A stretch of DNA of 12,534 bases from a virus (taxonomy: Duplodnaviria > Heunggongvirae > Uroviricota > Caudoviricetes), in IMG/VR virus record IMGVR_UViG_2600254997_000018, one strand, 5' to 3'. The stretch's first letter is position 1; each line of letters opens with the position of its first letter. A model generated the notes under the pieces. The model saw only the letters and a program-made list of their open reading frames with translations. It did not search any database and was not told where the DNA came from. This document shows, piece after piece, positions 1 through 12,534 of the stretch. The position numbers and the translations under genes are program-made.

Positions 1-104
1 CACAGCTCGTTGACAGCCTCTTCACGACTGATTCCAAGGCGAGCTGCCACCACATGTGAAGAGGCTTTTTTCAGTGCTTTCAGTGCGTCAGATACGGTTT
101 CCAT
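1..104 (-). CDS. Hypothetical protein, N-terminal part only (gene runs off the window start)
   Basis: ATG at 104..102 preceded by GGAGGA Shine-Dalgarno (complement of 112-117), 21 nt downstream of the DnaC-like stop. Open frame continues to position 1, N-terminus reads METVSDALKALKKASSHVVAARLGISREEAV. Not in the ORF track because truncated. Confidence 0.3.
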   Translation of the reverse strand, partial: METVSDALKALKKASSHVVAARLGISREEAVNEL

Positions 105-125
105 TAAAATTTCCTCCGGACAAAA

Positions 126-872
126 TTACTTCACAACCCTCATATTGCTGACATTTGGACGCCAGCTATCCCAGTTAAACGTCACCCATCGACCACCGTT
201 CATGGTCATGCGGTCCATAATCCTCTCACCAAGAAGTGTACTCATTGCGGCATGATTCAGGTTTGTTAACATCCCGACACTGCACAGTGATGCTGTCCGG
301 CGATCAATTATCTGGTGTAATACCACCTGCTCGTTTTTCGTCTCACGCTGAACGCCTATTTCATCCAGGACCAGCAAATCAACCCCGCAAAGCTCCTGTA
401 AAAATTTTTCCCCGGACTGGCCGTTGTCGTAGCTGTCATGCAACACACTCATGACGTCAGACACGGTGACGATAATCACGCTGCTCCCCTTCGCCATCAG
501 CCGGTTGCCCATCGCCGCTGCAAGGTGATTTTTCCCGGTGCCGGTTTTACCGCTGAACACAAAATTCGTGCACCCGGTCATCAGTTCGTCAGCGATGGAT
601 TTTGCCTGGCTCAGCGCGTGTTTTTGCCCGTCGTTCTGCACCTGATAATTCGCAAACGAGCATTTGCTGTGCAGAGGCTGGATGCCCGAACGATTCAGGA
701 TTTTTTCCACCCGCAACTGGCGATTCTGGCGGTTAATCTCCTCGCTGCGTTTTCGTCCTTCAGCAAGCTGCCATTCCCGCCACTCCTCCACCGTCCGGTA
801 CGGTGGAACCGCCCCCTGTGGTGCAAGTCTGCGAATACGTTCAAGAACCCCGGCTGCCGCAATGTTTTTCAT
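126..872 (-). CDS. DnaC-like replicative helicase loader (prophage-encoded, IstB-like AAA+ ATPase)
   Basis: 248-aa ORF with Walker A GKTGTGKNHLAAA and Walker B LLVLDEIG. Recalled close similarity along the whole length to E. coli DnaC and to Rac YdaV. GGGGG Shine-Dalgarno upstream of the ATG at 872. Confidence 0.9.
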   Translation of the reverse strand: MKNIAAAGVLERIRRLAPQGAVPPYRTVEEWREWQLAEGRKRSEEINRQNRQLRVEKILNRSGIQPLHSKCSFANYQVQNDGQKHALSQAKSIADELMTGCTNFVFSGKTGTGKNHLAAAMGNRLMAKGSSVIIVTVSDVMSVLHDSYDNGQSGEKFLQELCGVDLLVLDEIGVQRETKNEQVVLHQIIDRRTASLCSVGMLTNLNHAAMSTLLGERIMDRMTMNGGRWVTFNWDSWRPNVSNMRVVK

Positions 873-1355
873 GCCACGTCACCCCCTGAATCCAGGCGGT
901 ATTTCAGTGTCCGGTTCAGAAATGTGATTTACGCAACGCTGCGCGGGCGAACGCCCCAGGCGGATAACCAGTTCATCCCATTTTTCCCGGAGTTTTGCCG
1001 GACTCATGATGTGTTTTTACCCAGAACGAATCCCGCTGGACACGCCCAAACATTTCACAAATCTGCCGGTGACTACGTCCATCCAGCATACGCATCATGC
1101 GCACATCATTCGCCCAGGTCGTCCAGTTAGGTTCTCTGGGGCGTGACACCTCACCATCATCACTGGCGGCCTGTTCATACAACGCCACAACCCGTCCCCA
1201 AATCCACTGCGCACAGGTTCGACATCCTCACGGGTACCCCACTGTCGCTTCGGTACATTCCAGGTATGCGCATCCGGGTGTTTCTCCAGAAATCGCTCAA
1301 CTGGTGATGATTGTTTTTCGTCCGGCAGTGAAACGTCCGGACAAGAAGATCTTTT

Positions 1356-1507
1356 ATCTTGACGGATCAGGTTTTGATACTGACGGATCGGGGTCAATCA
1401 TCGCCCCCCTAATCGGCAGTTTTTTATCAACCGTTGATCCATCAAAATTTGACGGGTCAACCGTTGAGGGGTCAATATTTGACGGGTCAACTGTTAACGG
1501 GTCATTT
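1356..1507. repeat. Iteron-like direct and inverted repeats; putative prophage replication origin inside the initiator gene
   Basis: Core GACGG(G/A)TCA recurs at least 6 times. Two near-identical 30-bp tandem units at 1448-1477 and 1478-1507, two ~21-bp units at 1359-1400, and an AT-rich stretch follows at 1505-1545. Layout resembles lambda ori within gene O. Confidence 0.6.
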
Positions 1508-1768
1508 TTTGTCCGGGCTAATTTTTCTTTTCGGTTTATATGCCTCACGCGCCGCAGTTGCAGCTGCTTCGAGTTTTTCCACATTAAGCCGATAGATATT
1601 GCTTACGTTACGCCCACCGACCTTACGCTCTTCCTTCGTCAGCCAGCCCTCTTTCGCCAGTTCTGCAATAGCAGATTTAACGGTGGATTCACTTCTTGCA
1701 CCGATCTGACGCCGGATAGTTTCAATGGCAGGCCATGACACGCCCTCGTCATTGCTGTAGTCTAGCAA
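1502..1768 (-). CDS. Helix-turn-helix N-terminal segment of a phage replication initiator (O/YdaU-like), apparently truncated
   Basis: 88-aa ORF with HTH-like stretch AIETIRRQIGARSESTVKSAIAELAKEGWL. It starts on TTG with weak Shine-Dalgarno and contains no Met, and it ends at a stop just past a T6 run (1505-1510) inside the iteron array, so it looks like one piece of a longer broken gene. Confidence 0.5.
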   Translation of the reverse strand: MLDYSNDEGVSWPAIETIRRQIGARSESTVKSAIAELAKEGWLTKEERKVGGRNVSNIYRLNVEKLEAAATAAREAYKPKRKISPDKK

Positions 1769-1875
1769 GACGGGCCATAACCGCCACCCTGGATAAGATC
1801 ATGCCGGTGAAGGCGCACCCTTCCCAGACAAGACCATGAAGCTTGCTGCTCATAAAACCCCCGAACACCGTGCTT

Positions 1876-2301
1876 TTAGTGCATCACCACAGCATTCCCT
1901 GCCGGGCCGCCGCGATTCATCTGGTCATACAAAACAACCGCTGACGCAACAAAATCATCGACATCCTTCACCAGCCGATCCCTCCGTTCGACAATCTCAC
2001 GGTAATATTCAGAACTGTGGCTGCGCATACGGGCCACCAGCAGAGGCGGCATTGCCTTTTCGATCGCCGGTAACAGAGCCTGCATTTTTTCAACAGCATC
2101 AGGGGTGTCTTTATCCAGCCAACGGAAAATTTTCTGGGTATTACGAGCCAGGGCTTCCGGATGGCTGTCGTCGTACAGTTCCGGGAACGTCATCCCCAGT
2201 TCGAAATAAGTCCGGGCTATTTCAGCTGCAGGAACTTTCTCACCATCAGGATATGCCCAGGCATTCATCGCCATGCGGATGTGCTCATGTTTGATTTTCA
2301 T
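1876..2301 (-). CDS. ydaT: YdaT-like prophage protein (occupies the CII-like position)
   Basis: 141-aa ORF starting MKIKHEHI, immediately downstream of and overlapping the ydaS-like gene by 17 nt, as in Rac ydaS-ydaT. Assignment is from recalled similarity and synteny. Confidence 0.75.
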   Translation of the reverse strand: MKIKHEHIRMAMNAWAYPDGEKVPAAEIARTYFELGMTFPELYDDSHPEALARNTQKIFRWLDKDTPDAVEKMQALLPAIEKAMPPLLVARMRSHSSEYYREIVERRDRLVKDVDDFVASAVVLYDQMNRGGPAGNAVVMH

Positions 2302-2608
2302 GAATCATTTGCCTCTTGATGCTTCGGGTATGATCGTTTTCGTCATTTGGTTGCTTCATCGACATATTCTGCGAATAACATGACGAGCGTCGTAAGTATG
2401 TCCAATCAACATCAGGACGAAGTTCTTCACACAGGACACCACCTTTTGTTGCTCGTTCAATCGCAGGACATCTCTCAGCAGGCAACTGACGTACACCTTT
2501 GATCCATTGATTTACGCTTGGAGGAGATACACCTAAAAGCCTAGCCATTGCTGATTGCCCACCGACAACAGCACAAGCTCGTTTGAATGAATAGTTATCT
2601 TTTTTCAT
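2285..2608 (-). CDS. ydaS: YdaS-like Cro-type HTH DNA-binding protein
   Basis: Sequence MKKDNYSFKRACAVVGGQSAMARLLGVSPPSVNQWIKGVRQLPAERCPAIERA closely matches recalled Rac YdaS. Start placed at ATG 2608 (GGAG Shine-Dalgarno 8 nt upstream) rather than the track's GTG at 2629. Divergent from the repressor gene. Confidence 0.8.
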   Translation of the reverse strand: MKKDNYSFKRACAVVGGQSAMARLLGVSPPSVNQWIKGVRQLPAERCPAIERATKGGVLCEELRPDVDWTYLRRSSCYSQNMSMKQPNDENDHTRSIKRQMIHENQT

Positions 2609-2629
2609 CGAATGAACTCCAAAAAACAC

Positions 2630-2732
2630 ACAATAATATTAGGCTTAGCCTAATGTGATTGTCAATAGGCTATGCCTAACGATTCGAGAGTAGGGATTGC
2701 CTAACGCGATGCGCATAGGAGACTATTAAGCA
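2630..2732. promoter_or_regulatory. Divergent promoter/operator region between the ydaS-like and repressor genes
   Basis: Three operator-like sites about 26 bp apart: perfect 17-bp palindrome ATTAGGCTTAGCCTAAT (2638-2654), TAGGC-TAT-GCCTA (2666-2678), TAGGG-ATT-GCCTA (2691-2703). AGGAG Shine-Dalgarno at 2716-2720 before the repressor ATG at 2733. Confidence 0.5.
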
Positions 2733-3209
2733 ATGCTTAGTGGTAAAGACTTAGGCCGAGCGATAGAGCAGGCCATTAACAAAAAAATTGCATCAGGAGC
2801 CGTCAAATCAAAGGCGGAAATCGCACGTCATTTCAAAGTCCAACCACCATCAATCCATGACTGGATTAAGAAAGGTTCGATAAGTAAAGACAAACTTCCA
2901 GAACTATGGCGTTTCTTTTCTGATGTGGTTGGTCCAGAGCATTGGGGGCTTAACGAATACCCCATACCAACCCCATCCACTTCAGATACAAAAAGTGAAC
3001 TTTTAGACATAAACAGCCTTTATCAAGCCGCCTCTGATGAAAAAAGAGCAATTGTGGCTTTCCTCTTATCTGGAAATGCTACGGAGCCTAGTTGGGTTGA
3101 TCATGACGTTCGCGCCTACATTGCCGCAATGGAAATGAAGGTAGCTAACTATCTGAAAAATCAAGAATCAAAACGGAAAAGCCAGAACATCACCAAGACA
3201 GGAACTTAA
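2733..3209 (+). CDS. racR: RacR-like prophage repressor (HTH, no recognisable S24 peptidase/LexA-type domain)
   Basis: 158-aa ORF (same length as Rac RacR) with HTH-like stretch SKAEIARHFKVQPPSIHDWIKKGSIS. Divergent from ydaS/ydaT-like genes as in Rac. Identity from synteny, length and recalled similarity, not a search. Confidence 0.65.
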   Translation: MLSGKDLGRAIEQAINKKIASGAVKSKAEIARHFKVQPPSIHDWIKKGSISKDKLPELWRFFSDVVGPEHWGLNEYPIPTPSTSDTKSELLDINSLYQAASDEKRAIVAFLLSGNATEPSWVDHDVRAYIAAMEMKVANYLKNQESKRKSQNITKTGT

Positions 3210-3283
3210 ACTTATATGGTACGACGGGAAATTCCTAGTTCCCGTTAGTTAACTCCTACTACCTCTCCCACAAACCATCACCT

Positions 3284-3346
3284 ATTAGGTCGCACCCAAA
3301 TCATTAGGCGCAGCCTATTGACAGGCAATTAGGCATTTCCTATAGT
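3284..3346 (+). promoter_or_regulatory. Sigma70-like promoter (TTGACA-17-TATAGT) with flanking and embedded TTAGGC operator-like sites; putative promoter of the DUF1391-dicF-dicB operon
   Basis: -35 TTGACA 3318-3323, 17-bp spacer, -10 TATAGT 3341-3346. Palindrome TAGGC-GCA-GCCTA at 3305-3317 abuts the -35, ATTAGGC at 3328-3334 sits in the spacer, and ATTAGG also occurs at 3284-3289. Confidence 0.5.
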
Positions 3347-3527
3347 TTTCCCATACCAACCCATCCCGTCCCACACAATACAGGGCAATACCTAGAGTTA
3401 CCCGGCAGTGGTCAGGGATTAAGTAGCCAGCCCGAGGCGTATGAACATGACGGCGGGAACACTTTGTATAACAGCGCAGCAGGTTTTTAGTTCCGCTACC
3501 CCAGCGTTAAGGGGAAATGAGGTCAGC

Positions 3528-3680
3528 ATGGATACTATCGAGCTTGGCAACAACGAATCTCTGGTATGTGGCGTGTTTCCCAATCAGGACGGCACGTTTA
3601 CCGCGATGACGTATACCAAAAGTAAAACGTTTAAAACCGAAGCTGCCGCGCATCGCTGGTTAGCCAGAAACGCTAACTGA
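3528..3680 (+). CDS. ydfA: DUF1391 small protein (YdfA/YdaF-like)
   Basis: 50-aa product MDTIELGNNESLVCGVFPNQDGTFTAMTYTKSKTFKTE closely matches recalled Qin YdfA. GAGG Shine-Dalgarno 7-8 nt upstream of ATG 3528. The track's 79-aa ORF from 3441 is an in-frame upstream extension. Confidence 0.7.
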   Translation: MDTIELGNNESLVCGVFPNQDGTFTAMTYTKSKTFKTEAAAHRWLARNAN

Positions 3681-3942
3681 TTAGCGCCAGTAAAAACAGG
3701 TTTCCACAGGTTAATTTACCCTGAAAAGTCAGGGCATAACACGAAAGCGCACGGCGAGATCCCTTTGCATATAAGTCTTGTCGTTAAATTTCTTCGACCG
3801 TGCGCTTCTGGTTGTGGCAATCCGCGAAATGGCGCGGCGGTAAGTATGGCGGGGTTATTCCTTCCCCCATTGAGGACACCGGGTTGTCAGGTTGACCATA
3901 CGCTTAAGTGACAACTTCGCTACAACGCCCTCTGCTATCAAT

Positions 3943-3995
3943 TTTCTGGTGACGTTTGGCGGTATCAGTTTTACTCCGTGGCTGCTCTGCCGCCC
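3943..3995 (+). ncRNA. dicF: DicF small RNA homolog (Hfq-dependent ftsZ-targeting sRNA of Qin-type prophages)
   Basis: TTTCTGGTGACGTTTGGCGGTATCAGTTTTACTCCGTGGCTGCTCTGCCGCCC differs at one position (A to G) from the 53-nt K-12 DicF as I recall it. A T5 run follows at 3996-4000. It lies upstream of the dicB-like gene, as in Qin. Confidence 0.85.
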
Positions 3996-4169
3996 TTTTT
4001 AAAGTGAATTTTGTGATGCGGTGAATGCGGCTATGCGCACGCGGAACAGTTAAAACCAAAAACAGTGTTATGGGTGGATTCTCTGTATCCGGCGTTAATT
4101 GTTAACTGGTTAACGTCACCTGGAGGCACCAGGCACTGCATCACAAAATTCATTGTTGAGGACGCGATA

Positions 4170-4358
4170 ATGGAAACGTTATTACCAAACGTTAATACGT
4201 CTGAAGGTTGTTTTGATATTGGTGTTCTGCTCAGTAACCGGGAGTTTACTGAAGATGCCATTAAGATGAGAAAATATGAACCTTATCTTCTCAATGATAA
4301 TTCCATACTTTCCAGAATTGCCCTTCTTGAACTTGGTATTATCGGAGAACAGCAGTGA
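4170..4358 (+). CDS. dicB: DicB-like cell-division inhibitor (MinC-activating small protein)
   Basis: 62-aa product METLLPNVNTSEGCFDIGV... matches K-12 DicB in length and N-terminus as recalled. GAGGA Shine-Dalgarno upstream of ATG 4170. The track ORF 4065-4358 is an upstream in-frame extension. Confidence 0.8.
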   Translation: METLLPNVNTSEGCFDIGVLLSNREFTEDAIKMRKYEPYLLNDNSILSRIALLELGIIGEQQ

Positions 4359-4543
4359 CTTCAGCGTTTGCACTGGTGATGACCGTTTTTCTTATAACGG
4401 GTGAGCCACAAAATGTGATTACCGGAATTTATGCCAGTAAAGAATCCAGCCTCCAGGCAAGAGACGAGCAAAAAATTTCTGGTGAATGCCTACCGGTAAA
4501 AAAAGTATCGCTGTACCTGAATAACGAAACACCGGCTGGATAA
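4355..4543 (+). CDS. Small membrane protein, YdfD-like (Qin lysis-protein position)
   Basis: 62-aa ORF with an N-terminal hydrophobic helix (SAFALVMTVFLITG). GTG start overlaps the dicB-like stop (GTGA) with GGAG Shine-Dalgarno 7 nt upstream; alternative ATG at 4379. Assignment by synteny (gene after dicB in Qin is ydfD). Confidence 0.55.
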   Translation: MTSAFALVMTVFLITGEPQNVITGIYASKESSLQARDEQKISGECLPVKKVSLYLNNETPAG

Positions 4544-4638
4544 CCCGCCAGCTATATTAACGCCATACCAACGGATTAAAAATGCCAGCAATGGCAGGGA
4601 TTCGTTCACCCTGAAATCTGTAATGAGGTTAAAACACA

Positions 4639-7110
4639 ATGAGTAAAATCTTTATTTGCGCTGCTATTCCTGACGAACAGGCCATAAAAGAAGATAGCGC
4701 TGTTGCGGTGGCCACTGCCATTGAAGCCGGTGATGAGCGTCGCGCACGCGCAAAATTTCACTGGCAATTTCTGGAGCAATTCCCGGCAGCTCAGGACTGC
4801 GCTTATAAATTTATTGTCTGCGAGGATAAACCCGGCATACCCCGCCCTGCCCTCGATTCCTGGGATACCGAATATATGCAGGAAAACCGCTGGGATGAGG
4901 AGTCAGCTTCCTTTGTACCGGTCGAACCAGAATCCGATCCGATGAACGTCAATTTTGACAAGCTGTCCCCTGAAGTACAGAACGCAGTCCTAGTTAAATT
5001 CGACACATGCGAAAACATCACCGTTGATATGGTGATTAGCGCACAGGAATTACTACAGGAAGACATGGCAACATTCGGCGGACATATCGTTGAAGCGTTG
5101 ATGAAAATGCCAGAAGTTAACGCCATGTATCCTGAACTTAAACTGCATGCCATCGGGTGGGTTAAGCATAAATGTGAGCCTGGCGCTAAATGGCCTGAAA
5201 TTCAGGCAGAGATGCGCATCTGGAAAAAACGTCGCGAAGGTGAACGCAAGGAAACCGGAAAATACACGTCTGTTGTTGATCTCACCCGCGCCAGAGTCAA
5301 CCAACAGAACACTGAAAACGCTGCTGAAAAAACCGGGGCTGTCACTGTTGCCATTCGCCGCGAATACAAACAGACATGGAAAACACTCGACAATGAACTG
5401 GCCTGCGCCCTCTGGCCCGGTGATGTGGATGCAGGAAACATTGACGGTACCATCCATCGCTGGGCGACAAATGAGGTTATCGACAAGGATCGCGAAGACT
5501 GGAAGCGTATCTCAGCATCAATGCGCAAACAGCCCGAAGCACTTGGCTATGACCGTCAGACTATTTTTGGCCTTGTTCGCGAACGTCCGATCGATATTCA
5601 CAAAGATCCCGTTGCACTGAACAAATATATCAGTGAATACCTGACGACAAAGGGCGTGTTTGAACATGAAGAAACAGACCAGAGCTCTACTGATGCTCTC
5701 CAGCCGTCAGCAGCACAAACTGCTCCAGTGGAGACGGCAGAATCCGATACTCAAAAAAATGAAATCCTGGTGGAAGCTGAACCATCTGTAGAGCGTGAAG
5801 GACCATTTTATTTCGTCTTTACCGATAAGGGCGGGGAAAAATACGGCAGGGCAAACAAACTTTCTGGTCTGGACAAGGCGCTGGCTGCCGGCGGTACCGA
5901 AATCTCAAAAGAAGAATATTTTGCCCGAAAAAATGGCACATACACGGGCTTACCGCAAAATGTGGATACCGCTGAAGATTCCGAACAATCAGAGCCGGTA
6001 AAAGTTACCGCTGACGAAGTAAACAAAATTATGCAGGCAGCCAATATCAGCCAGCCTGACGCCGATAAATTGCTTGCTGCATCACGTGGTGAATTTGTTG
6101 AAGGGATTAGCGACCCGAATGATCCGAAATGGGTGAAAGGGATCCAGAGTCGCGACGCTGAGGACCAGAATCAGCCCAACGTGAAACAAAATGAGCCAGA
6201 AGCGGAACAAAACAGCCCGGATACGCAACAAAACGGGCCAGAAGAACAACAACCAGAACCAGCAGTGCAACAGGAACTGGAAAAAGTTTGCACCGCATGC
6301 GGTCAGACCGGTGGCGGCAACTGTCCTGACTGTGGTGCGGTGATGGGGAACGCAACCTACCTGGAAACATTCGATGAAGAGAATCAGGCTGAAGCTCAGA
6401 AAAATGATCCGGAGGAAATGGAAGGCACTGAACATCTGCACAAGGAGAACACTGGCAGCGATCAGTATCACGCCAGCGATAATAAAACTGGCGAAACAGC
6501 AAATCCCTTAATTAAAGTGAACGGTCATCATGAAATCTCATCCACCAGCAGGTTGTGGCACCATCTGATGATTGACCTTGAAACAATGGGAAAAAATCCT
6601 GATGCGCCAATAAACGCTATAGCCGGTAAGTTTTTTGATCCGGCAACCGGAGAGATGGGGCCAGAATTCAGCAAAACTATCGATCTGGAAACCGCAGGTG
6701 GGGTCATCGATCGGGACACCATTAAGTGGTGGCTGAAACAGTCACGCGAAGCACAATCCTCCATTCTGACCGATGAAATCACGTTGGATGATGCACTGCT
6801 GCAATTCCGGGAATTTATCGACGAAAACTCCGGTGAATTTTTTGTTCAGGTCTGGGGTAACGGTGCAACTTTCGACAACGTGATTTTACGCCGTTCATAT
6901 GAACGGCAGGGGATCCCCTGCCCGTGGCGTTACACCAATGATCGCGATGTAAGAACGATGGTTGCTCTGGGACTGGTGATGGATTTCGACGCAAGAACGA
7001 CTATTCCATTCGAAGGTGAACGCCATAACGCCCTGCACGATGCGCGTTACCAGGCAAAATACGTTTCAGCCATCTGGCAAAAACTGCTCCCGAGTCAGGC
7101 TGATTTTTAA
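4639..7110 (+). CDS. Prophage exonuclease, 823 aa: RecE/exodeoxyribonuclease-VIII-like N-terminal region, CxxC-x7-CxxC zinc ribbon, C-terminal DnaQ-like (DEDDh) 3'-5' exonuclease domain
   Basis: Intact 2.47-kb ORF with GAGG Shine-Dalgarno. Motif DKLLAASRGEFVEGISDPNDPKWVKGIQ recalls RecE. C-terminal ~190 aa carry DEDDh motifs (MIDLETMG, WGNGATFDNVIL, HNALHDARYQ). Zinc ribbon encoded at 6289-6333, acidic/Gln-rich linker at ~6160-6280. Confidence 0.85.
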   Translation: MSKIFICAAIPDEQAIKEDSAVAVATAIEAGDERRARAKFHWQFLEQFPAAQDCAYKFIVCEDKPGIPRPALDSWDTEYMQENRWDEESASFVPVEPESDPMNVNFDKLSPEVQNAVLVKFDTCENITVDMVISAQELLQEDMATFGGHIVEALMKMPEVNAMYPELKLHAIGWVKHKCEPGAKWPEIQAEMRIWKKRREGERKETGKYTSVVDLTRARVNQQNTENAAEKTGAVTVAIRREYKQTWKTLDNELACALWPGDVDAGNIDGTIHRWATNEVIDKDREDWKRISASMRKQPEALGYDRQTIFGLVRERPIDIHKDPVALNKYISEYLTTKGVFEHEETDQSSTDALQPSAAQTAPVETAESDTQKNEILVEAEPSVEREGPFYFVFTDKGGEKYGRANKLSGLDKALAAGGTEISKEEYFARKNGTYTGLPQNVDTAEDSEQSEPVKVTADEVNKIMQAANISQPDADKLLAASRGEFVEGISDPNDPKWVKGIQSRDAEDQNQPNVKQNEPEAEQNSPDTQQNGPEEQQPEPAVQQELEKVCTACGQTGGGNCPDCGAVMGNATYLETFDEENQAEAQKNDPEEMEGTEHLHKENTGSDQYHASDNKTGETANPLIKVNGHHEISSTSRLWHHLMIDLETMGKNPDAPINAIAGKFFDPATGEMGPEFSKTIDLETAGGVIDRDTIKWWLKQSREAQSSILTDEITLDDALLQFREFIDENSGEFFVQVWGNGATFDNVILRRSYERQGIPCPWRYTNDRDVRTMVALGLVMDFDARTTIPFEGERHNALHDARYQAKYVSAIWQKLLPSQADF

Positions 7111-7168
7111 TGTTCAACCCGGATCGCCGCTAACGGCATATAGTTAGCGGCGGTTGTGAGATATAGCT

Positions 7169-7372
7169 ATGAGCAGCATATTTTTAACCGAAAATGAATT
7201 GCAAACGTTAACGGGCTGCAAATATGCAAGCCACCAGCGCAACTGGTTAATAAAAAATGGGCTTCCGTTCTATACCAATCGTAGTGGAAAACCGATCGTC
7301 AGTCGGGAACTGTTTACCTGTATAAAAACTTTACCACCACGTGAGGCTGAACCTGATTTCGGTGCGATCTAA
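7169..7372 (+). CDS. Excisionase-like protein (Xis, DUF4224-type)
   Basis: 67-aa ORF directly upstream of the integrase. Its stop TAA overlaps the integrase ATG (TAATG at 7370-7374), the classic xis-int arrangement. Confidence 0.6.
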   Translation: MSSIFLTENELQTLTGCKYASHQRNWLIKNGLPFYTNRSGKPIVSRELFTCIKTLPPREAEPDFGAI

Positions 7373-8397
7373 TGGGAAGACGAAGGAAAAATCCCGAACA
7401 CGAAAAATTACCGCCAAAGGTATACCCCAATAAATATAGTTATGTATGGAAACCGACATCCAGAGAATCTGTAACCTTAACTGCAATCGAGGATGGTTTA
7501 GCCGCATTATGGAAAAAGTATGAAGAAACGGTTAACCATCGCGATCGCGCAATGACATTTGGGCGTTTGTGGGAAAAATTTCTCGCCAGCGCCTATTACA
7601 GCGAGCTTAGTCCTAGAACTCAAAAAGATTATCTGCAACATCAAAAAAAGCTGCTGGCCGTATTCGGTAAGGTGCTGGCCGATTCTGTAAAACCAGAGCA
7701 CATCAGACGATACATGGACAAAAGAGGCGAGCAGAGTAAAACGCAGGCAAACCATGAAAAAAGCAGTATGTCGCGCGTTTATAGTTGGGGGTATGAGCGA
7801 GGATACGTGAAGGCTAACCCATGTGCAGGTGTAAGTAAATTCAAGGCCAAAAACCGCGAACGATATGTAACCGACAAAGAATACCAGGCAGTATTAAGCG
7901 TTGCACCTCTTCCTGTTTTTATCGCAATGGAAATTGCCTATCTGTGTGCAGCGAGGGTTTCCGATGTGTTATCGCTGAAATGGGAGCAGATTGGAAACGA
8001 CGGGATCTTTATCCAGCAAGGGAAAACAGGGAAAAAACAGATAAAAGCATGGAGTCCACGATTACAGGCGGCGATCGAAAAAGCAAAACAGTTACCAACA
8101 TCCGCCTATGTAATCAGCAATCAATACGGCAACCGATATATGTACAAAGGCTTTAACGAAATGTGGGTAGAAGCAAGAAATCACGCAGGCAAAATTTCAG
8201 GTATTTTAACCGACTTCACCTTTCATGATCTGAAGGCGAAAGGAATTTCAGACTATGAAGGAAGCAGCCGGGATAAGCAACTTTTCTCTGGTCACAAAAC
8301 CGAAGGGCAAGTGCTAATCTATGACAGGAAGGTTAAAGTTTCACCAACACTTGATGTCCCGTTACCTGAAAATATTCCAAGAAAATATTCCAAGTAA
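7372..8397 (+). CDS. Phage integrase, tyrosine site-specific recombinase
   Basis: 341-aa ORF whose C-terminal region carries residues consistent with the tyrosine-recombinase catalytic set (R in ARVSD, H/K in HDLKAKG, Y in LIYDRK). It ends 52 bp from the 3' end of tRNA-Ser. Confidence 0.9.
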   Translation: MGRRRKNPEHEKLPPKVYPNKYSYVWKPTSRESVTLTAIEDGLAALWKKYEETVNHRDRAMTFGRLWEKFLASAYYSELSPRTQKDYLQHQKKLLAVFGKVLADSVKPEHIRRYMDKRGEQSKTQANHEKSSMSRVYSWGYERGYVKANPCAGVSKFKAKNRERYVTDKEYQAVLSVAPLPVFIAMEIAYLCAARVSDVLSLKWEQIGNDGIFIQQGKTGKKQIKAWSPRLQAAIEKAKQLPTSAYVISNQYGNRYMYKGFNEMWVEARNHAGKISGILTDFTFHDLKAKGISDYEGSSRDKQLFSGHKTEGQVLIYDRKVKVSPTLDVPLPENIPRKYSK

Positions 8398-8449
8398 TTC
8401 CAAGTGTGATTTTTGTCACTGACTTAATGATGTGTAAGTGATTGAATTT

Positions 8450-8539
8450 TGGCGGAGAGAGGGGGATTTGAACCCCCGGTGGAGTTGCCCCCACTCCGGT
8501 TTTCGAGACCGGTCCGTTCAGCCGCTCCGGCATCTCTCC
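8450..8539 (-). tRNA. serU: tRNA-Ser (anticodon CGA)
   Basis: Reverse complement reads GGAGAGATGCCGGAGCGGCTGAACGGACCGGTCTCGAAAACCGGAG...TCTCTCCGCCA: 7-bp acceptor stem, anticodon loop CU-CGA-AA, long variable arm, encoded CCA. Matches E. coli serU as recalled. Confidence 0.9.
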
Positions 8540-8632
8540 GTTCAGATGGTTGCCATGATGCCAGGAAATTTGGCATTTTAACAGTCCCTGTCCGTGCAAT
8601 TTTGTTCAAGTGACGAGTTTGCGAGCAAAACG

Positions 8633-9430
8633 ATGATTAAGTGGCCCTGGAAAGTACAAGAATCAGCACATCAAACTGCCCTTCCCTGGCAGGAAGCACT
8701 ATCGATCCCCCTTTTAACGTGTCTGACAGAACAGGAACAAAGCAAATTAGTCGCTCTTGCCGAACGTTTTTTACAACAAAAACGGCTTGTTCCTTTACAG
8801 GGCTTTGAGCTGAATTCATTAAGAAGCTGCCGGATAGCACTTCTATTTTGCCTGCCCGTTCTGGAGTTAGGACTGGAATGGCTGGATGGTTTTCATGAAG
8901 TCTTAATTTATCCTGCGCCATTTGTGGTCGATGATGAATGGGAAGACGATGTCGGTCTGGTGCATAACCAACGTATTGTTCAGTCAGGTCAGAGCTGGCA
9001 GCAAGGGCCTATCGTTTTGAACTGGTTGGATATACAAGATTCTTTTGATGCTTCTGGTTTTAACCTGATTATTCATGAAGTCGCTCATAAGCTGGACACC
9101 CGTAACGGCGATCGCGCCAGCGGAGTTCCCTTTATTTCGTTGCGTGAGGTTGCTGGCTGGGAACACGATCTTCATGCTGCAATGAACAACATTCAGGAAG
9201 AAATCGAATTAGTTGGTGAGAATGCGGCGAGCATTGATGCTTATGCTGCCAGTGATCCTGCTGAATGTTTTGCCGTACTTTCTGAATATTTCTTTAGCGC
9301 CCCAGAACTTTTTGCTCCTCGTTTCCCTTCATTGTGGCAACGTTTCTGTCAATTTTATCAACAAGATCCTTTGCAGAGACTGCATCACGCTAATGATACA
9401 GACTCGTTTTCGGCGACGAATGTTCATTAA
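8633..9430 (+). CDS. mtfA: MtfA, Mlc titration factor A (zinc-dependent peptidase, HEXXH motif)
   Basis: 265-aa product from ATG 8633 ([20 protein letters not shown]...) matches E. coli MtfA as recalled, including the HEVAHKLD motif. The track ORF 8594-9430 is an upstream in-frame extension. Sits between serU and asnT as in K-12. Confidence 0.9.
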
Positions 9431-9483
9431 TTAACAACTTTGCAGATTAATTAACCAATTGAAATGGCTTATGAAATTTAGTG

Positions 9484-9512
9484 TTGACAGACAAGGTACC
9501 GCTAAGTAATAT
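9484..9512 (+). promoter_or_regulatory. Sigma70 promoter for tRNA-Asn (TTGACA-17-TAATAT with GC-rich discriminator)
   Basis: TTGACA at 9484-9489, 17-bp spacer, TAATAT at 9507-9512, followed by GCGCCCC, typical of stringently controlled tRNA promoters. tRNA starts at 9531. Confidence 0.5.
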
Positions 9513-9530
9513 GCGCCCCGTTCTCACGAT

Positions 9531-9606
9531 TCCTCTGTAGTTCAGTCGGTAGAACGGCGGACTGTTAATCCGTATGTCACTGGTTCGAGTCCAGTCAGAG
9601 GAGCCA
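9531..9606 (+). tRNA. asnT: tRNA-Asn (anticodon GUU)
   Basis: TCCTCTGTAGTTCAGTCGGTAGAACGGCGGACTGTTAATCCGTATGTCACTGGTTCGAGTCCAGTCAGAGGAGCCA, 76 nt, matches E. coli tRNA-Asn as recalled. Copy assignment (asnT) is by position next to mtfA. Confidence 0.95.
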
Positions 9607-9694
9607 AATTCTAAAGATTCGCTTTTTTAGCGCAATGTCACTGCTCTTAGTTGAGCATTGCTTTTTAACGGATAGCGGGTTTTTGACATCTTAA

Positions 9695-9726
9695 GCGCCC
9701 TCAATCTTCATGGTTGAGGGCGTTTT
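9695..9726 (+). terminator. Rho-independent terminator-like hairpin downstream of tRNA-Asn
   Basis: 9-bp GC-rich stem CGCCCTCAA / TTGAGGGCG (9696-9704 / 9714-9722), 9-nt loop, then TTTT at 9723-9726. Confidence 0.5.
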
Positions 9727-9892
9727 GCTATGAACGCCATCACCATTTTCCCCTCGATTATAAAACTTGAGTAATTCAGTAGTCTCCCCTCTTGCAACTC
9801 ACACCCAAAACTGCTTAACGAAAAGTTATTAATTTTCAATCATATTGCTATCAGGATCTACTTTTTTTCGCTGTGCTAGAAAGGGCGCATTT

Positions 9893-10838
9893 ATGTTAGC
9901 TCGTTCAGGGAAGGTAACCGTGAAGGTTACTGGCAACTCAAGCACCGCCCATGTTGCTAGCTTTATCGCTGATCCATCGACTATCGCCGCCACCAACAGT
10001 GATTTAAGTACCTTAAAGGCAACGGTTGAGGATGGCAGTGGTAACCTGATCGAAGGTCTCACTGTGTACTTCGCCTTAAAAAGCGGCTCCACCACATTAA
10101 CGTCATTAACAGCAGTGACCGATCAAAACGGAATCGCGACAATAAGCGTGAAAGGAGCGATAACGGGGAGCGTCACTGTAAGCACAGTCACAAGCAAACA
10201 GTAGATATATCGCTAGTGGCAGGCCCAGCAGACGCCTCGCAGTCCATCCTTAAGAACAACCAGTCATCACTGAAAGGGGACTTTACCGATAGTGCTGAGC
10301 TACATCTTGTTCTGCACGATATATCAGGCAATCCGATCAAAGTTTCTTAAGGGATGGAATTTGTGCAATCAGGTACAAACGTGCCCTATATGAAAATTAG
10401 CGCAATTGATTACAGTCAAAATATCAACGGTGATTACAAAGCTACTGTTACAGGAGGCGGAGAGGGTATCGCAACGCTGATCCCCGTATTGAATGGTGTT
10501 CATCAGACGGGCCTGAGTACCACGATAGAATTCATTAGCGCGGAAACCAGACCAATGACCGGTACAGTGTCAGTGAATGGTGCAAACCTACCGACAGCTT
10601 CATTCCCTTCGCAGGGATTTACCGGGGCGTATTATCAGTTGAATAATGACAGCTTTGCACCAGGAAAAACGGCGGCTGATTATTTGTTTCAAGCTCGGCC
10701 TCCTGGGTAGGCGTTGATGCTACTGGTAAAGTGACATTCAAAAATGACGGTGATAGCAATACTGTAATAATCACAGCGCCCCCAAGATCCGGTGGTGCTA
10801 TTTACCAAACAGTTCCGCATGAATCGCGTTCGGTGTGA
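9893..10838 (+). pseudogene. yeeJ: 3' remnant of a yeeJ-like inverse-autotransporter adhesin gene (bacterial Ig-like domains), frameshifted
   Basis: Ig-like-domain-type sequence (VTVKVTGNSSTAHVASFIADPSTIAATN..., ...ISGNPIKVS, EFVQSGTNVPY...) continues across at least three frames (shifts near 10200, 10350, 10700). Only ~1 kb lies between asnT and the next gene, versus ~7 kb for intact yeeJ. Gene name is from K-12 synteny. Confidence 0.45.
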
Positions 10839-11209: not shown

Positions 11210-12419
11210 TCATAATTTCCCCAAAGCGTAACCATGTGTGAATAAATTTTGAGCTAGTAGGGTTGCAGCCACGAGTAAGTCTTCCCTTGTTATTGTGTAG
11301 CCAGAATGCCGCAAAACTTCCATGCCTAAGCGAACTGTTGAGAGTACGTTTCGATTTCTGACTGTGTTAGCCTGGAAGTGCTTAGTCCCAACCTTGTTTC
11401 TGAGCATGAACGCCCGCAAGCCAACATGTTAGTTGAAGCATCAGGGCGATTAGCAGCATGATATCAAAACGCTACTGAGCTGCCCGTTCGGCTATGGCGT
11501 AGGCCTAGCCCGTAGGCAGGACTTTTCAAGTCTCGGAAGGTTTCTTCAATCTGCATTCGCTTCGAATAGATATTAACAAGTTGTTTGGGTGTTCGAATTT
11601 CAACAGGTAAGTTAGTTGCTAGAACCATGGCTCCTTTGCCGACGCTGAGTAGATTTTAGGTGACGGGTGGTGACAATGAGTCCGTGTCGAGCGCTGATTT
11701 TTTCGGCCTTTAGAGCGAGATTTATACAATAGAATTTGGCATGAGATTGGATTGCTTTTAGTCAGCCTCTTATAGCCTAAAGTCTTTGAGTGACTAGATG
11801 ACATATCATGTAAGTTGCTGATAGGTTTCCAGTTTTCCGCTCCTAGGTCTGCATATTGTACTTTTCCTCTTACTCGACTTAACCAGTACCAACCCAGCTT
11901 CTCAACGGATTTATACCATGGCACTTTAAAGCCAGCATCACTGACAATGAGCGGTGTGGTGTTACTCGGTAGAATGCTCGCAAGGTCGGCTAGAAATTGG
12001 TCATGAGCTTTCTTTGAACATTGCTCTGAAAGCGGGAACGCTTTCTCATAAAGAGTAACAGAACGACCGTGTAGTGCGACTGAAGCTCGCAATACCATAA
12101 GTCGTTTTTGCTCACGAATATCAGACCAGTCAACAAGTACAATGGGCATCGTATTGCCCGAACAGATAAAGCTAGCATGCCAACGGTATACAGCGAGTCG
12201 CTCTTTGTGGAGGTGACGATTACCTAACAATCGGTCGATTCGTTTGATGTTATGTTTTGTTCTCGCTTTGGTTGGCAGGTTACGGCCAAGTTCGGTAAGA
12301 GTGAGAGTTTTACAGTCAAGTAATGCGTGGCAAGCCAACGTTAAGCTGTTGAGTCGTTTTAAGTGTAATTCGGGGCAGAATTGGTAAAGAGAGTCGTGTA
12401 AAATATCGAGTTCGCACAT
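11210..12419 (-). pseudogene. IS10 transposase, frame-disrupted (N-terminal 266 aa intact, middle and C-terminal parts in other frames)
   Basis: ORF 11619-12419 matches IS10 Tnp from MCELDILHDSLYQF... but stops at ...AKEPWF*. The expected continuation VLATNLPVEIRTPKQ... is in another frame, and the C-terminal ...HFQANTVRNRNVLSTV...GYALGKL is in ORF 11210-11419. At least three indels within ~200 bp. Confidence 0.8.
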
Positions 12420-12480
12420 CTTGTTGTCTGATTATTGATTTTTCGCGAAACCATTTGATCATATGACAAGATGTGTATCT
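12412..12480 (+). ncRNA. IS10 antisense RNA-OUT (predicted from position in IS10)
   Basis: Established IS10 layout puts pOUT about 115 bp from the outside end, transcribing outward. The window shows the expected stem: CGCACATCTTGTTGTC (12413-12428) pairs with GACAAGATGTG (12465-12475). GATC at 12467-12470. Confidence 0.5.
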
Positions 12481-12534
12481 ACCTTAACTTAATGATTTTT
12501 ATCAAAATCATTAGGGGATTCATCAGGCGTAGCG

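Follow-up and report, generated by a model that had tools for sequence, protein, structure and literature searches.

The 12,534-nt Caudoviricetes sequence IMGVR_UViG_2600254997_000018 from IMG/VR (hereafter the window; all coordinates are positions in it) carries, within a lambdoid prophage, a copy of the small RNA gene dicF followed by a dicB gene and an overlapping YdfD-like gene. A prophage module of this sort, consisting of the DicF small RNA, the DicB division inhibitor, and a YdfD-like lysis protein, is of an ordinary, previously described kind, and here it sits under a Rac-type repressor. The module and its noncoding parts are as follows.

3719..3942, plus strand: Qin-like untranslated leader 5' of dicF, 88-91% identical to K-12 Qin.
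3943..3995, plus strand: dicF small RNA gene, G39 allele (Rfam DicF, alignment with K-12).
4003..4154 (core 4013-4146), plus strand: structured spacer RNA of the STnc100/PasD kind (covariance model, base-by-base helix check).
4170..4358, plus strand: dicB, diverged allele (Pfam DicB, NCBIfam NF049927, BLASTP against K-12).
4355..4543, plus strand: YdfD-like DUF1482 gene (Pfam DUF1482, PF07358; comparison with K-12 YdfD).

The original prediction, which was made from the letters alone, described a near-exact DicF copy with one substitution relative to Escherichia coli K-12, proposed alignment to K-12 dicF and to Rfam DicF as the check, and named a poor covariance-model alignment as the outcome that would count against it. 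The Rfam model RF00039 matched positions 3944-3995 on the plus strand over its full length (1-52) with 75 bits (E 2e-15), well above the gathering score of 48, and alignment with the 53-nt K-12 gene gave a single mismatch (98.1% identity), so that this description was borne out. The mismatch is at nt 39 (position 3981), where the A of K-12 is a G, changing GUGACUG to GUGGCUG. The RNA has the DicF layout, namely, a single-stranded 5' seed, a nested hairpin that acts as the intrinsic terminator, and then a U-run, in the same fold as in K-12; the terminator hairpin (3958-3964/3988-3994, followed by a T-run) coincides with a terminator-like site found by scan.

In published work the 5' part of DicF pairs with xylR and pykA, and the 3' part, within which nt 39 falls, with ftsZ and manX (PMC5069750, PMC5861419); one could envisage that A39G has produced a functionally different DicF with changed targets, for example, weaker manX control or new targets. 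We consider this improbable. Within DicF, nt 39 pairs with U27 in the inner stem, and the change from U27-A39 to a U27·G39 wobble leaves the same structure, with a predicted fold energy of -15.4 kcal/mol compared to -15.9 kcal/mol for the K-12 allele; the structural neutrality of the substitution is established. The original prediction had asked whether the substituted position falls in a target-pairing region, and the answer differs between the two targets. In the manX duplex prediction nt 39 does face a U, so that an A-U pair becomes G·U (-52.3 to -51.8 kcal/mol), a point in favor of altered targeting, albeit at a cost of about 0.5 kcal/mol, as in the intramolecular fold; in the predicted ftsZ leader duplex nt 37 to 40 are unpaired and the energy is -38.5 kcal/mol for both alleles. 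The G39 allele is thus predicted to keep its complementarity to the ftsZ ribosome-binding region and the manX coding region, and because the fold is neutral and both duplex predictions are nearly unchanged, there is no reason to expect altered DicF function. G39 is also a common natural allele: among E. coli complete-genome records, 493 have an exact G39 copy as their best match (3,761 have the K-12 allele), G39 was found in 3 of 69 DicF copies in a sample of prophage contigs, the Salmonella enterica DicF (L008, ~3050-3700, minus strand; 60.6 bits) also has G at this position, and the Rfam DicF consensus is variable there. A scan of genome contigs with the DicF core pattern returned eight loci (Escherichia, Shigella, Salmonella, and three metagenome bins that are likely mis-binned), too few for an independent covariation test within DicF.

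In K-12, RNase III cuts 137 nt 5' of DicF to give a 190-nt species, and RNase E makes the 5' end of the small RNA (PMC10448788). By analogy, the region processed by both enzymes is expected to lie within the leader at 3719-3942. An upstream RNase III stem was sought by folding 3715-3998, whose stability was not significantly above that of shuffled sequences (z -1.67), and for that reason we make no claim about leader structure.

The ORF (open reading frame) of 62 codons predicted to follow dicF encodes a real DicB family member, although it begins at 4170 and not at 4171. Its full-length product matched Pfam PF05358 with 129.5 bits (cut-off, 27) and NCBIfam NF049927 with 111 bits (cut-off, 100), and a Shine-Dalgarno sequence, GAGGA, lies at 4158-4162. 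The protein is 61% identical to K-12 DicB by BLASTP, but this identity is unevenly distributed at the DNA level, with 96.4% in codons 1 to 18 and 58.6% in the remainder. In K-12 DicB the essential N-terminal segment comprises the first ~14 residues, N-terminal truncations and L5A inactivate the protein, the last eight residues are dispensable, and K2A, K2G, and K2R variants are still active (PMC4967827). In the window only K2E differs within the first 15 residues (METLLPNVNTSEGC versus MKTLLPNVNTSEGC), and L5 is kept; the E at position 2 is outside the substitutions assayed in K-12. Two overlapping reading frames, an in-frame extension of dicB (4065-4358, 97 aa) that runs inside the structured RNA and an antisense frame (3904-4059) in the structured RNA region, had no family match and were treated as not real.

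The overlapping 62-residue membrane protein that had been predicted at 4355-4543 proved equally real, matching Pfam DUF1482 with 53.9 bits (cut-off, 25), with 47% identity to K-12 YdfD and a hydrophobic N terminus (maximum hydropathy of 2.29 at residues 4 to 16); none of the NCBIfam models matched it. Its GTG start overlaps the dicB stop codon (GTGA, ATGA in K-12), an arrangement that points to translational coupling to dicB. In K-12 YdfD, C32 and C45 are described as conserved, and the cysteines are reported to be unnecessary for IspG binding (PMC8835842). The DicF, DicB, and DUF1482 family matches are all far beyond chance, and the identity of each part of the module is established.

Upstream of the module lies an immunity region with the following features.

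1876..2301, minus strand: YdaT-family gene (CII-like), a distant variant (Pfam YdaT_toxin, 40.9 bits, cut-off 21).
2285..2608, minus strand: ydaS (Cro-like), Rac-type (Pfam YdaS_toxin, 103.7 bits; limits from the annotation of the NCBI Prokaryotic Genome Annotation Pipeline [PGAP]).
2638..2706: three RacR-type operators (OR-like) between ydaS and racR, the repeats ATTAGGCTTAGCCTAAT, AATAGGCTATGCCTAA, and AGTAGGGATTGCCTAA.
2733..3209, plus strand: racR repressor gene (NCBIfam RacR equivalog, 246.8 bits, cut-off 200).
3303..3346, plus strand: pL-like promoter with two RacR-type operators (promoter scan, repeat search).
3528..3680, plus strand: DUF1391 gene (ydaF/ydfA-like), the last Rac-like segment (Pfam DUF1391, 99.3 bits).

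With the RacR equivalog match above its cut-off and a divergent ydaS-ydaT pair whose products exceed the Pfam YdaS_toxin and YdaT_toxin cut-offs, the region is Rac-type, as had been predicted. RacR and YdaS are 92% and 85% identical to their K-12 counterparts, compared to 31% for YdaT (named toxin YdaT family protein by PGAP in a near-identical strain), which suggests a further mosaic junction inside the immunity region. The three repeats at 2638-2706 fit the published RacR operator consensus, (T/A)TAGGC-n3-GCCTA(T/A), which occurs in three copies between racR and ydaS (PMC9638921), and a ydaS promoter-like site lies at 2665-2636. Two further RacR-type operators lie 3' of racR (3303-3320 and 3328-3345). 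They belong to repeat family D1, whose arm I1 shows 88% complementarity to an OR operator, and they overlap the sequence that scored highest in the promoter scan of this region, TTGACA-17 nt-TATAGT (plus strand, 3318-3346; 11 of 12 positions). The operators and the promoter are established as sequence features. The paper that defined the operators does not name ydaG, and no sign was found that it treats the stretch 3' of racR. The same arrangement of operators and pL-like promoter is found in K-12 Rac, and it resembles the OL/pL region of lambda, which may indicate a similar function. Because two RacR-type operators overlap a near-consensus promoter, the module is probably repressor controlled. 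An exact 13-nt direct repeat, CCCATACCAACCC, was also noted at 2961-2973, inside racR, and at 3350-3362, just 3' of the pL-like -10 element; it is partly conserved in K-12 Rac and may be due to chance.

How such a module would operate can be drawn from K-12 work, from which we carry over the control of the 3318-3346 promoter, the RNA processing, and all of the cellular activities (dicBF operon logic and processing: PMC5069750, PMC10448788, PMC6832061). In K-12 a single DicA-repressed promoter gives a transcript that either stops after dicF or runs on through ydfD, the 190-nt and 53-nt DicF species being produced through RNase III and RNase E (PMC10448788). In the window, the RacR-type repressor (2733-3209) would probably silence the 3318-3346 promoter through the two overlapping operators. 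The derepressed transcript would span the DUF1391 gene, the leader, dicF, the spacer, dicB, the ydfD-like gene, and the exonuclease, excisionase, and integrase genes described below, ending at the integrase gene; it would stop in part at the DicF terminator, the remainder reading through into dicB, and RNase E and RNase III would excise DicF from it, as in K-12 Qin. DicF (G39) would repress ftsZ, manX, xylR, and pykA through base pairing, DicB would bind MinC, block Z-ring formation in a MinC- and ZipA-dependent manner, and block ManYZ-dependent entry of phage DNA, and the YdfD-like protein would act as a lysis protein. Cell division inhibition, phage exclusion, and lysis are reasonable expectations for these DicB and YdfD-like alleles. 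That the module alters host physiology upon derepression, as the original prediction supposed, would follow by analogy with K-12 (PMC5069750, PMC6832061, PMC8835842), and it is made more plausible by the RacR-type operators that cover the promoter upstream of the module.

The locus is best explained as the portion of an early-left (pL-type) operon that targets the host, in a lambdoid prophage whose integration site is a tRNA-Ser gene beside mtfA, a reading to which we assign a probability of about 0.85. Several points weigh against it. The ftsZ and manX pairings described above were derived from a crude duplex prediction and our own reading of the published site and not from published figures. 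Relative to the assayed K-12 proteins, DicB has diverged strongly over its C-terminal two thirds and the YdfD-like protein over most of its length (61% and 47% identity); of the cysteines described as conserved, the latter retains C45 but has Ser in place of C32. No report of RacR binding to operators downstream of racR was found in the literature. Finally, PGAP marks the integrase of a near-identical strain as frameshifted, and the prophage may therefore be defective.

This last point, together with the cryptic nature of both Qin and Rac in K-12 and the loss of the Rac ydaG segment here, would also fit a silent, decaying cryptic-prophage remnant that has no present function and whose conservation reflects only recent common descent. 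We regard such an interpretation as highly unlikely. All of the ORFs of the module are intact, as are the promoter and operators; the leader-dicF-spacer sequence is 88 to 98% identical across prophage backbones, compared to 55 to 59% for the flanking coding sequence; and the base pairs of the spacer have been kept through compensatory changes. Furthermore, dicF is present in about 3,800 to 3,950 of 5,426 complete E. coli genomes.

The host-targeting operon is hardly confined to this prophage. A single genome can have dicF in up to seven places, and the module is carried by functional temperate phages, at least one record of which annotates both DicF and dicB. Three RefSeq E. coli genomes (14EC007, 14EC047, and 14EC017) match the segment from 3400 to 4640 (1,241 nt) with 100% identity; in them PGAP has annotated racR, DUF1391, dicB, DUF1482, and the exonuclease, but not dicF, and the racR-to-dicB stretch (racR, dicF, and dicB) is covered to at least 80% in 250 of the 5,426 complete genomes. 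The racR-dicF-dicB arrangement is thus common, it already carries annotation in public genomes, and the occurrence of dicF in several prophage contexts has already been published. Given the identical genomes, the widespread combination, and these publications, the finding as originally framed is already known. Prophages of enterohemorrhagic E. coli (EHEC) O157:H7 and other pathogenic E. coli carry multiple dicF copies, and the window is one more such context; unlike the EHEC copies, no virulence link can be read from its sequence.

The original prediction that the prophage is a Rac/Qin mosaic was correct, and the mosaic can be mapped: RacR/YdaS immunity, instead of DicA/DicC, lies upstream of dicF-dicB-ydfD-like genes. 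The window is collinear with K-12 Rac from ydaS through racR and the DUF1391 gene to about 3660, minus the ydaG segment, the DUF1391 gene being 82% identical at the nucleotide level to Rac ydaF up to that point. From about 3719 to about 4225, a stretch extending from the leader across dicF and the spacer into the first codons of dicB, the sequence is Qin-like and 88 to 98% identical to K-12, which places the Rac-to-Qin junction at about 3660-3719. From dicB codon 19 (about 4225) onward a third lineage takes over, with 94% identity to the PPompW/Stx2a prophages of Shiga toxin-producing E. coli. These junctions are established, and on sequence identity at least three lineages meet in this segment.

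Compared with the K-12 Qin dicBF operon (ydfABC-dicF-dicB-ydfD-ydfE under DicA/DicC), the window has the same order of leader, dicF, spacer, dicB, overlapping ydfD, and exonuclease gene, a DUF1391 gene upstream, a pL-like position 3' of the repressor gene, and nearly identical dicF (98.1%) and spacer (98.3%) sequences. In contrast to Qin, its repressor and Cro-like genes are RacR and YdaS, ydfB and ydfC are absent, DicB and YdfD are only 61% and 47% identical, and the exonuclease gene, which is cut by IS2 in K-12, is intact. With K-12 Rac (ydaT-ydaS/racR-ydaG-ydaF-...-kilS-kilR) the window shares RacR (92%), YdaS (85%), the same operators and pL-like promoter, the DUF1391 gene, and a spacer-type structured RNA that comes after a DicF-like small RNA and before a division-inhibitor gene. 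The two differ in that Rac has kilS-kilR (and sieB) in place of dicF-dicB-ydfD, in YdaT (only 31%), and in the integration site, which is ttcA for Rac and tRNA-Ser for the window prophage.

The only lead in this region that may be new is the spacer, which the original prediction passed over and which folds like the prophage RNA STnc100. From the DicF terminator to the dicB start there are 174 nt (3996-4169) that are 98.3% identical to K-12, a conservation at least equal to that of any part of dicB and far above that of most of it. The following helices were assigned.

4003-4023/4134-4154: P1, a 21-bp outer stem.
4027-4031/4037-4042: P2.
4043-4045/4088-4090: P3.
4091-4098/4110-4117: P4.
4119-4123/4129-4133: P5.
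4047-4053 (CAGUUAA) with 4102-4108 (UUAACUG): candidate pseudoknot.

The fold of 3943-4180 had a z score of -4.07. At permissive thresholds the full Rfam STnc100 model (RF02076) matched 3993-4202 with 35.3 bits (E 3e-6 in 401 nt), which does not reach the gathering score of 47; with this model the window is matched in score by K-12 Qin and further dicF loci. As an independent test, a covariance model was built on an RNAalifold consensus only from canonical STnc100 copies of prophage contigs, reduced to 23 cores of less than 90% identity. It hit 4013-4146 over its full length with 60.4 bits (E about 2e-15) and zero nonstandard pairs, and it hit the homologous spacers of K-12 Qin, E. ruysiae, S. 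flexneri, and two metagenome bins at 53 to 60 bits. In a 34-copy alignment, 97.1% of the pair cells are standard, compared to 40 to 44% when the partners are slid by 1 to 3 columns, and in 15 of 25 pairs both partners vary; the alignment was fitted to the model and so favors the structure, which makes these figures somewhat generous. Compensatory differences between the spacer and the canonical copies were recorded for every helix: for example, CCCCC/GGGG becomes GCGGC/GC-CGC in P2, GGGUUCAG/CUGAACUC becomes GGCGUUAA/UUAACGUC in P4, and CCGGG/CCCGG becomes CCUGG/CCAGG in P5.

The loop of P4 is complementary to a strand about 20 nt after the AAU junction, and canonical copies have other complementary pairs at the same place (CUGGUG/CACCGG, AUCAGCA/UGCUGAU, GCCAGGUCG/UGACCUGGC, and CAUGACCA/UGGUUAUG), which suggests a pseudoknot. 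Taken by itself, the match in the window is modestly unlikely, with 218 of 20,000 loop shuffles reaching 7 bp, and the case for the pseudoknot consequently lies in the covariation across copies.

STnc100 (RF02076) and PasD are small RNAs of the late regions of lambdoid and Shiga toxin (Stx) prophages, which the papers searched describe only from near Q, esterase, and lysis genes (bioRxiv 10.64898/2026.05.13.724894). The core architecture that they have in common with the spacer consists of a closing stem, an AAU junction, and a hairpin whose loop is of the U(G/A)UGCG type; a variable insert closed by a stem of three pairs; an 8-bp hairpin with a loop able to pair with the strand some 20 nt beyond the AAU; and a CCNGG-AGGCA-CCNGG hairpin. 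The spacer departs from these RNAs in scoring below the gathering threshold, in the extension of its closing stem to 21 bp, and in its lack of a terminator: canonical STnc100 copies carry GC-rich terminators and lie near lysis genes, whereas the spacer lies in an early-left operon, away from Q, esterase, holin, and lysozyme genes, and runs straight into the dicB ribosome-binding site, ending 3 nt before the Shine-Dalgarno sequence. The put antiterminator RNA of HK022, a 70-nt, two-stem, V-shaped element upstream of terminators (PMC9378689), was considered as a model and rejected, since neither its architecture nor its position fits. No link of STnc100 or PasD to DicF, dicB, or kilR was found in the literature; the STnc100/PasD survey does not mention DicF, and a study of outer membrane vesicles names it once, as another Stx-modulating small RNA, unlinked to STnc100.

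The likeness of the spacer to STnc100 is well supported as a structural relationship, and its role may be that of an RNase III site only, a cis element that sets dicB or kilR expression, or a released trans-acting RNA. An RNase III-dependent 72-nt form of DicF has been published (PMC5069750), and its 3' end would map to 4014, inside P1. This agrees with the view that the spacer is only a long RNase III hairpin, which resembles STnc100 through common descent among phages and has no separate function, as do the missing terminator and the low Rfam score. We consider this view unlikely, though it deserves serious attention: an RNase III site needs just the outer stem, and yet four inner helices and the complementarity between loop and strand have been kept, with compensatory changes among canonical, Qin-type, and Rac-type copies, in a sequence that is 98.3% identical to K-12 when dicB codons 1 to 18 are 96.4% and the rest 58.6% identical. 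If the spacer does have a role beyond that of a cleavage site, RNase III cutting in the extended closing stem would part DicF from the downstream message and might also free the spacer to act as another regulatory RNA, or determine how stable the toxic-gene message is and how well it is translated.

The same element is found in K-12 Rac, where the canonical-only model hit L005 7259-7393 (59.7 bits), exactly between KilS and kilR. On the minus strand of L005 (7259-7503), KilS ends in a DicF-like hairpin and terminator, which is followed by the spacer element and then by kilR; compared with the window, the Rac spacer carries two more compensatory changes in P4, and its pseudoknot arms are the same. 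With the Rfam DicF model, KilS fell short of the threshold (39.1 bits, E 7e-7). DicF goes unmentioned in the publication that named KilS, and no paper calling KilS a relative of DicF was found. The gene order suggests that kilS-kilR and dicF-dicB are parallel cassettes. In the 5' part of KilS (L005 ~7440-7470, minus strand), 16 nt are identical to a conserved stretch of RprA (AUUGCUGUGUGUAGUC), a likeness that corresponds to a weak Rfam RprA match (28 bits, E 0.55).

To see the arrangement across prophages, 111 IMG/VR prophage contigs carrying the spacer were surveyed. In about 70 of them DicF lay upstream of it, in about 25 a DicF-like hairpin whose 5' end differs, and in about 14 nothing recognizable; downstream lay dicB in two allele classes, kilR in about 20, or an ORF starting MLNVAIENQNGW in 8. 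The dicB allele of the window occurred in 18 of 69 DicF-linked loci, and rare recombinants, in which DicF stands with kilR or a KilS-like element with dicB, were seen at a few loci. The picture is of a three-part cassette with a constant structured middle piece. We tentatively propose, as a possibility that falls short of an even chance, that a pseudoknotted domain of the STnc100/PasD class is the fixed middle of a cassette that runs from a small RNA (DicF or KilS) through a structured RNA to a division inhibitor (dicB, kilR, or others). Two loci with other arrangements were also noted: the Salmonella dicF mentioned above precedes a small ORF and then a gene resembling kilR, without an STnc100-like spacer, and a spacer-type element with the pseudoknot arms of the window (L131, 2995-3138, minus strand) lies directly 3' of a cI-like repressor gene with no DicF upstream.

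Beyond the module, the operon and the prophage end comprise the following features.

4639..7110, plus strand: 823-aa exonuclease gene, next in the operon (Pfam Rv2179c-like 3'-5' exoribonuclease domain).
7169..7372, plus strand: excisionase-like gene (Pfam DUF4224; PGAP annotation in a near-identical strain).
7372..8397, plus strand: tyrosine integrase gene, the prophage end (Pfam Phage_integrase; PGAP annotation in a near-identical strain).
8450..8539, minus strand: tRNA-Ser(CGA), the attachment site beside mtfA (ARAGORN, Rfam tRNA, PGAP context).

The Rv2179c-like domain of the exonuclease (208.8 bits) is C-terminal, at residues 641 to 813, and the middle part of the protein is partially RecE-like; the K-12 ydfE pseudogene corresponds to the 5' part of this gene, with 89% identity up to the IS2 insertion. 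The integrase ORF of the window keeps the catalytic Tyr region, and its gene abuts tRNA-Ser(CGA), beyond which lie mtfA and tRNA-Asn; in strain terms, this is a prophage next to serU/mtfA that occurs in clinical isolates. Positions 1 to 9917 are 99.6% identical to E. coli 14EC007, and beyond 9917 there is divergence within the yeeJ adhesin region. An IS10 end lies in 11210-12481, with RNA-OUT at 12412-12481 (98.8 bits); on the minus strand, the reading frame of the transposase seems to be split into three ORFs (266, 54, and 69 residues), which could reflect real decay or assembly indels.

In conclusion, the locus conforms to a well-documented pattern in which dicF and dicB move among lambdoid prophages and are silenced by the prophage repressor; when they are expressed, host division can be halted, sugar uptake can be altered, and other phages can be excluded. 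The practical value of recognizing the module lies in correct annotation, since dicF is left unannotated by PGAP in identical RefSeq genomes. If the spacer is indeed a functional STnc100-type RNA common to dicF-dicB and kilS-kilR, it would account for a noncoding conservation that exceeds that of most of the downstream coding sequence, it would give STnc100/PasD-type RNAs a defined genetic context in which function can be tested, and it would suggest that prophages swap modules of small RNAs and toxins through recombination within a common linker.

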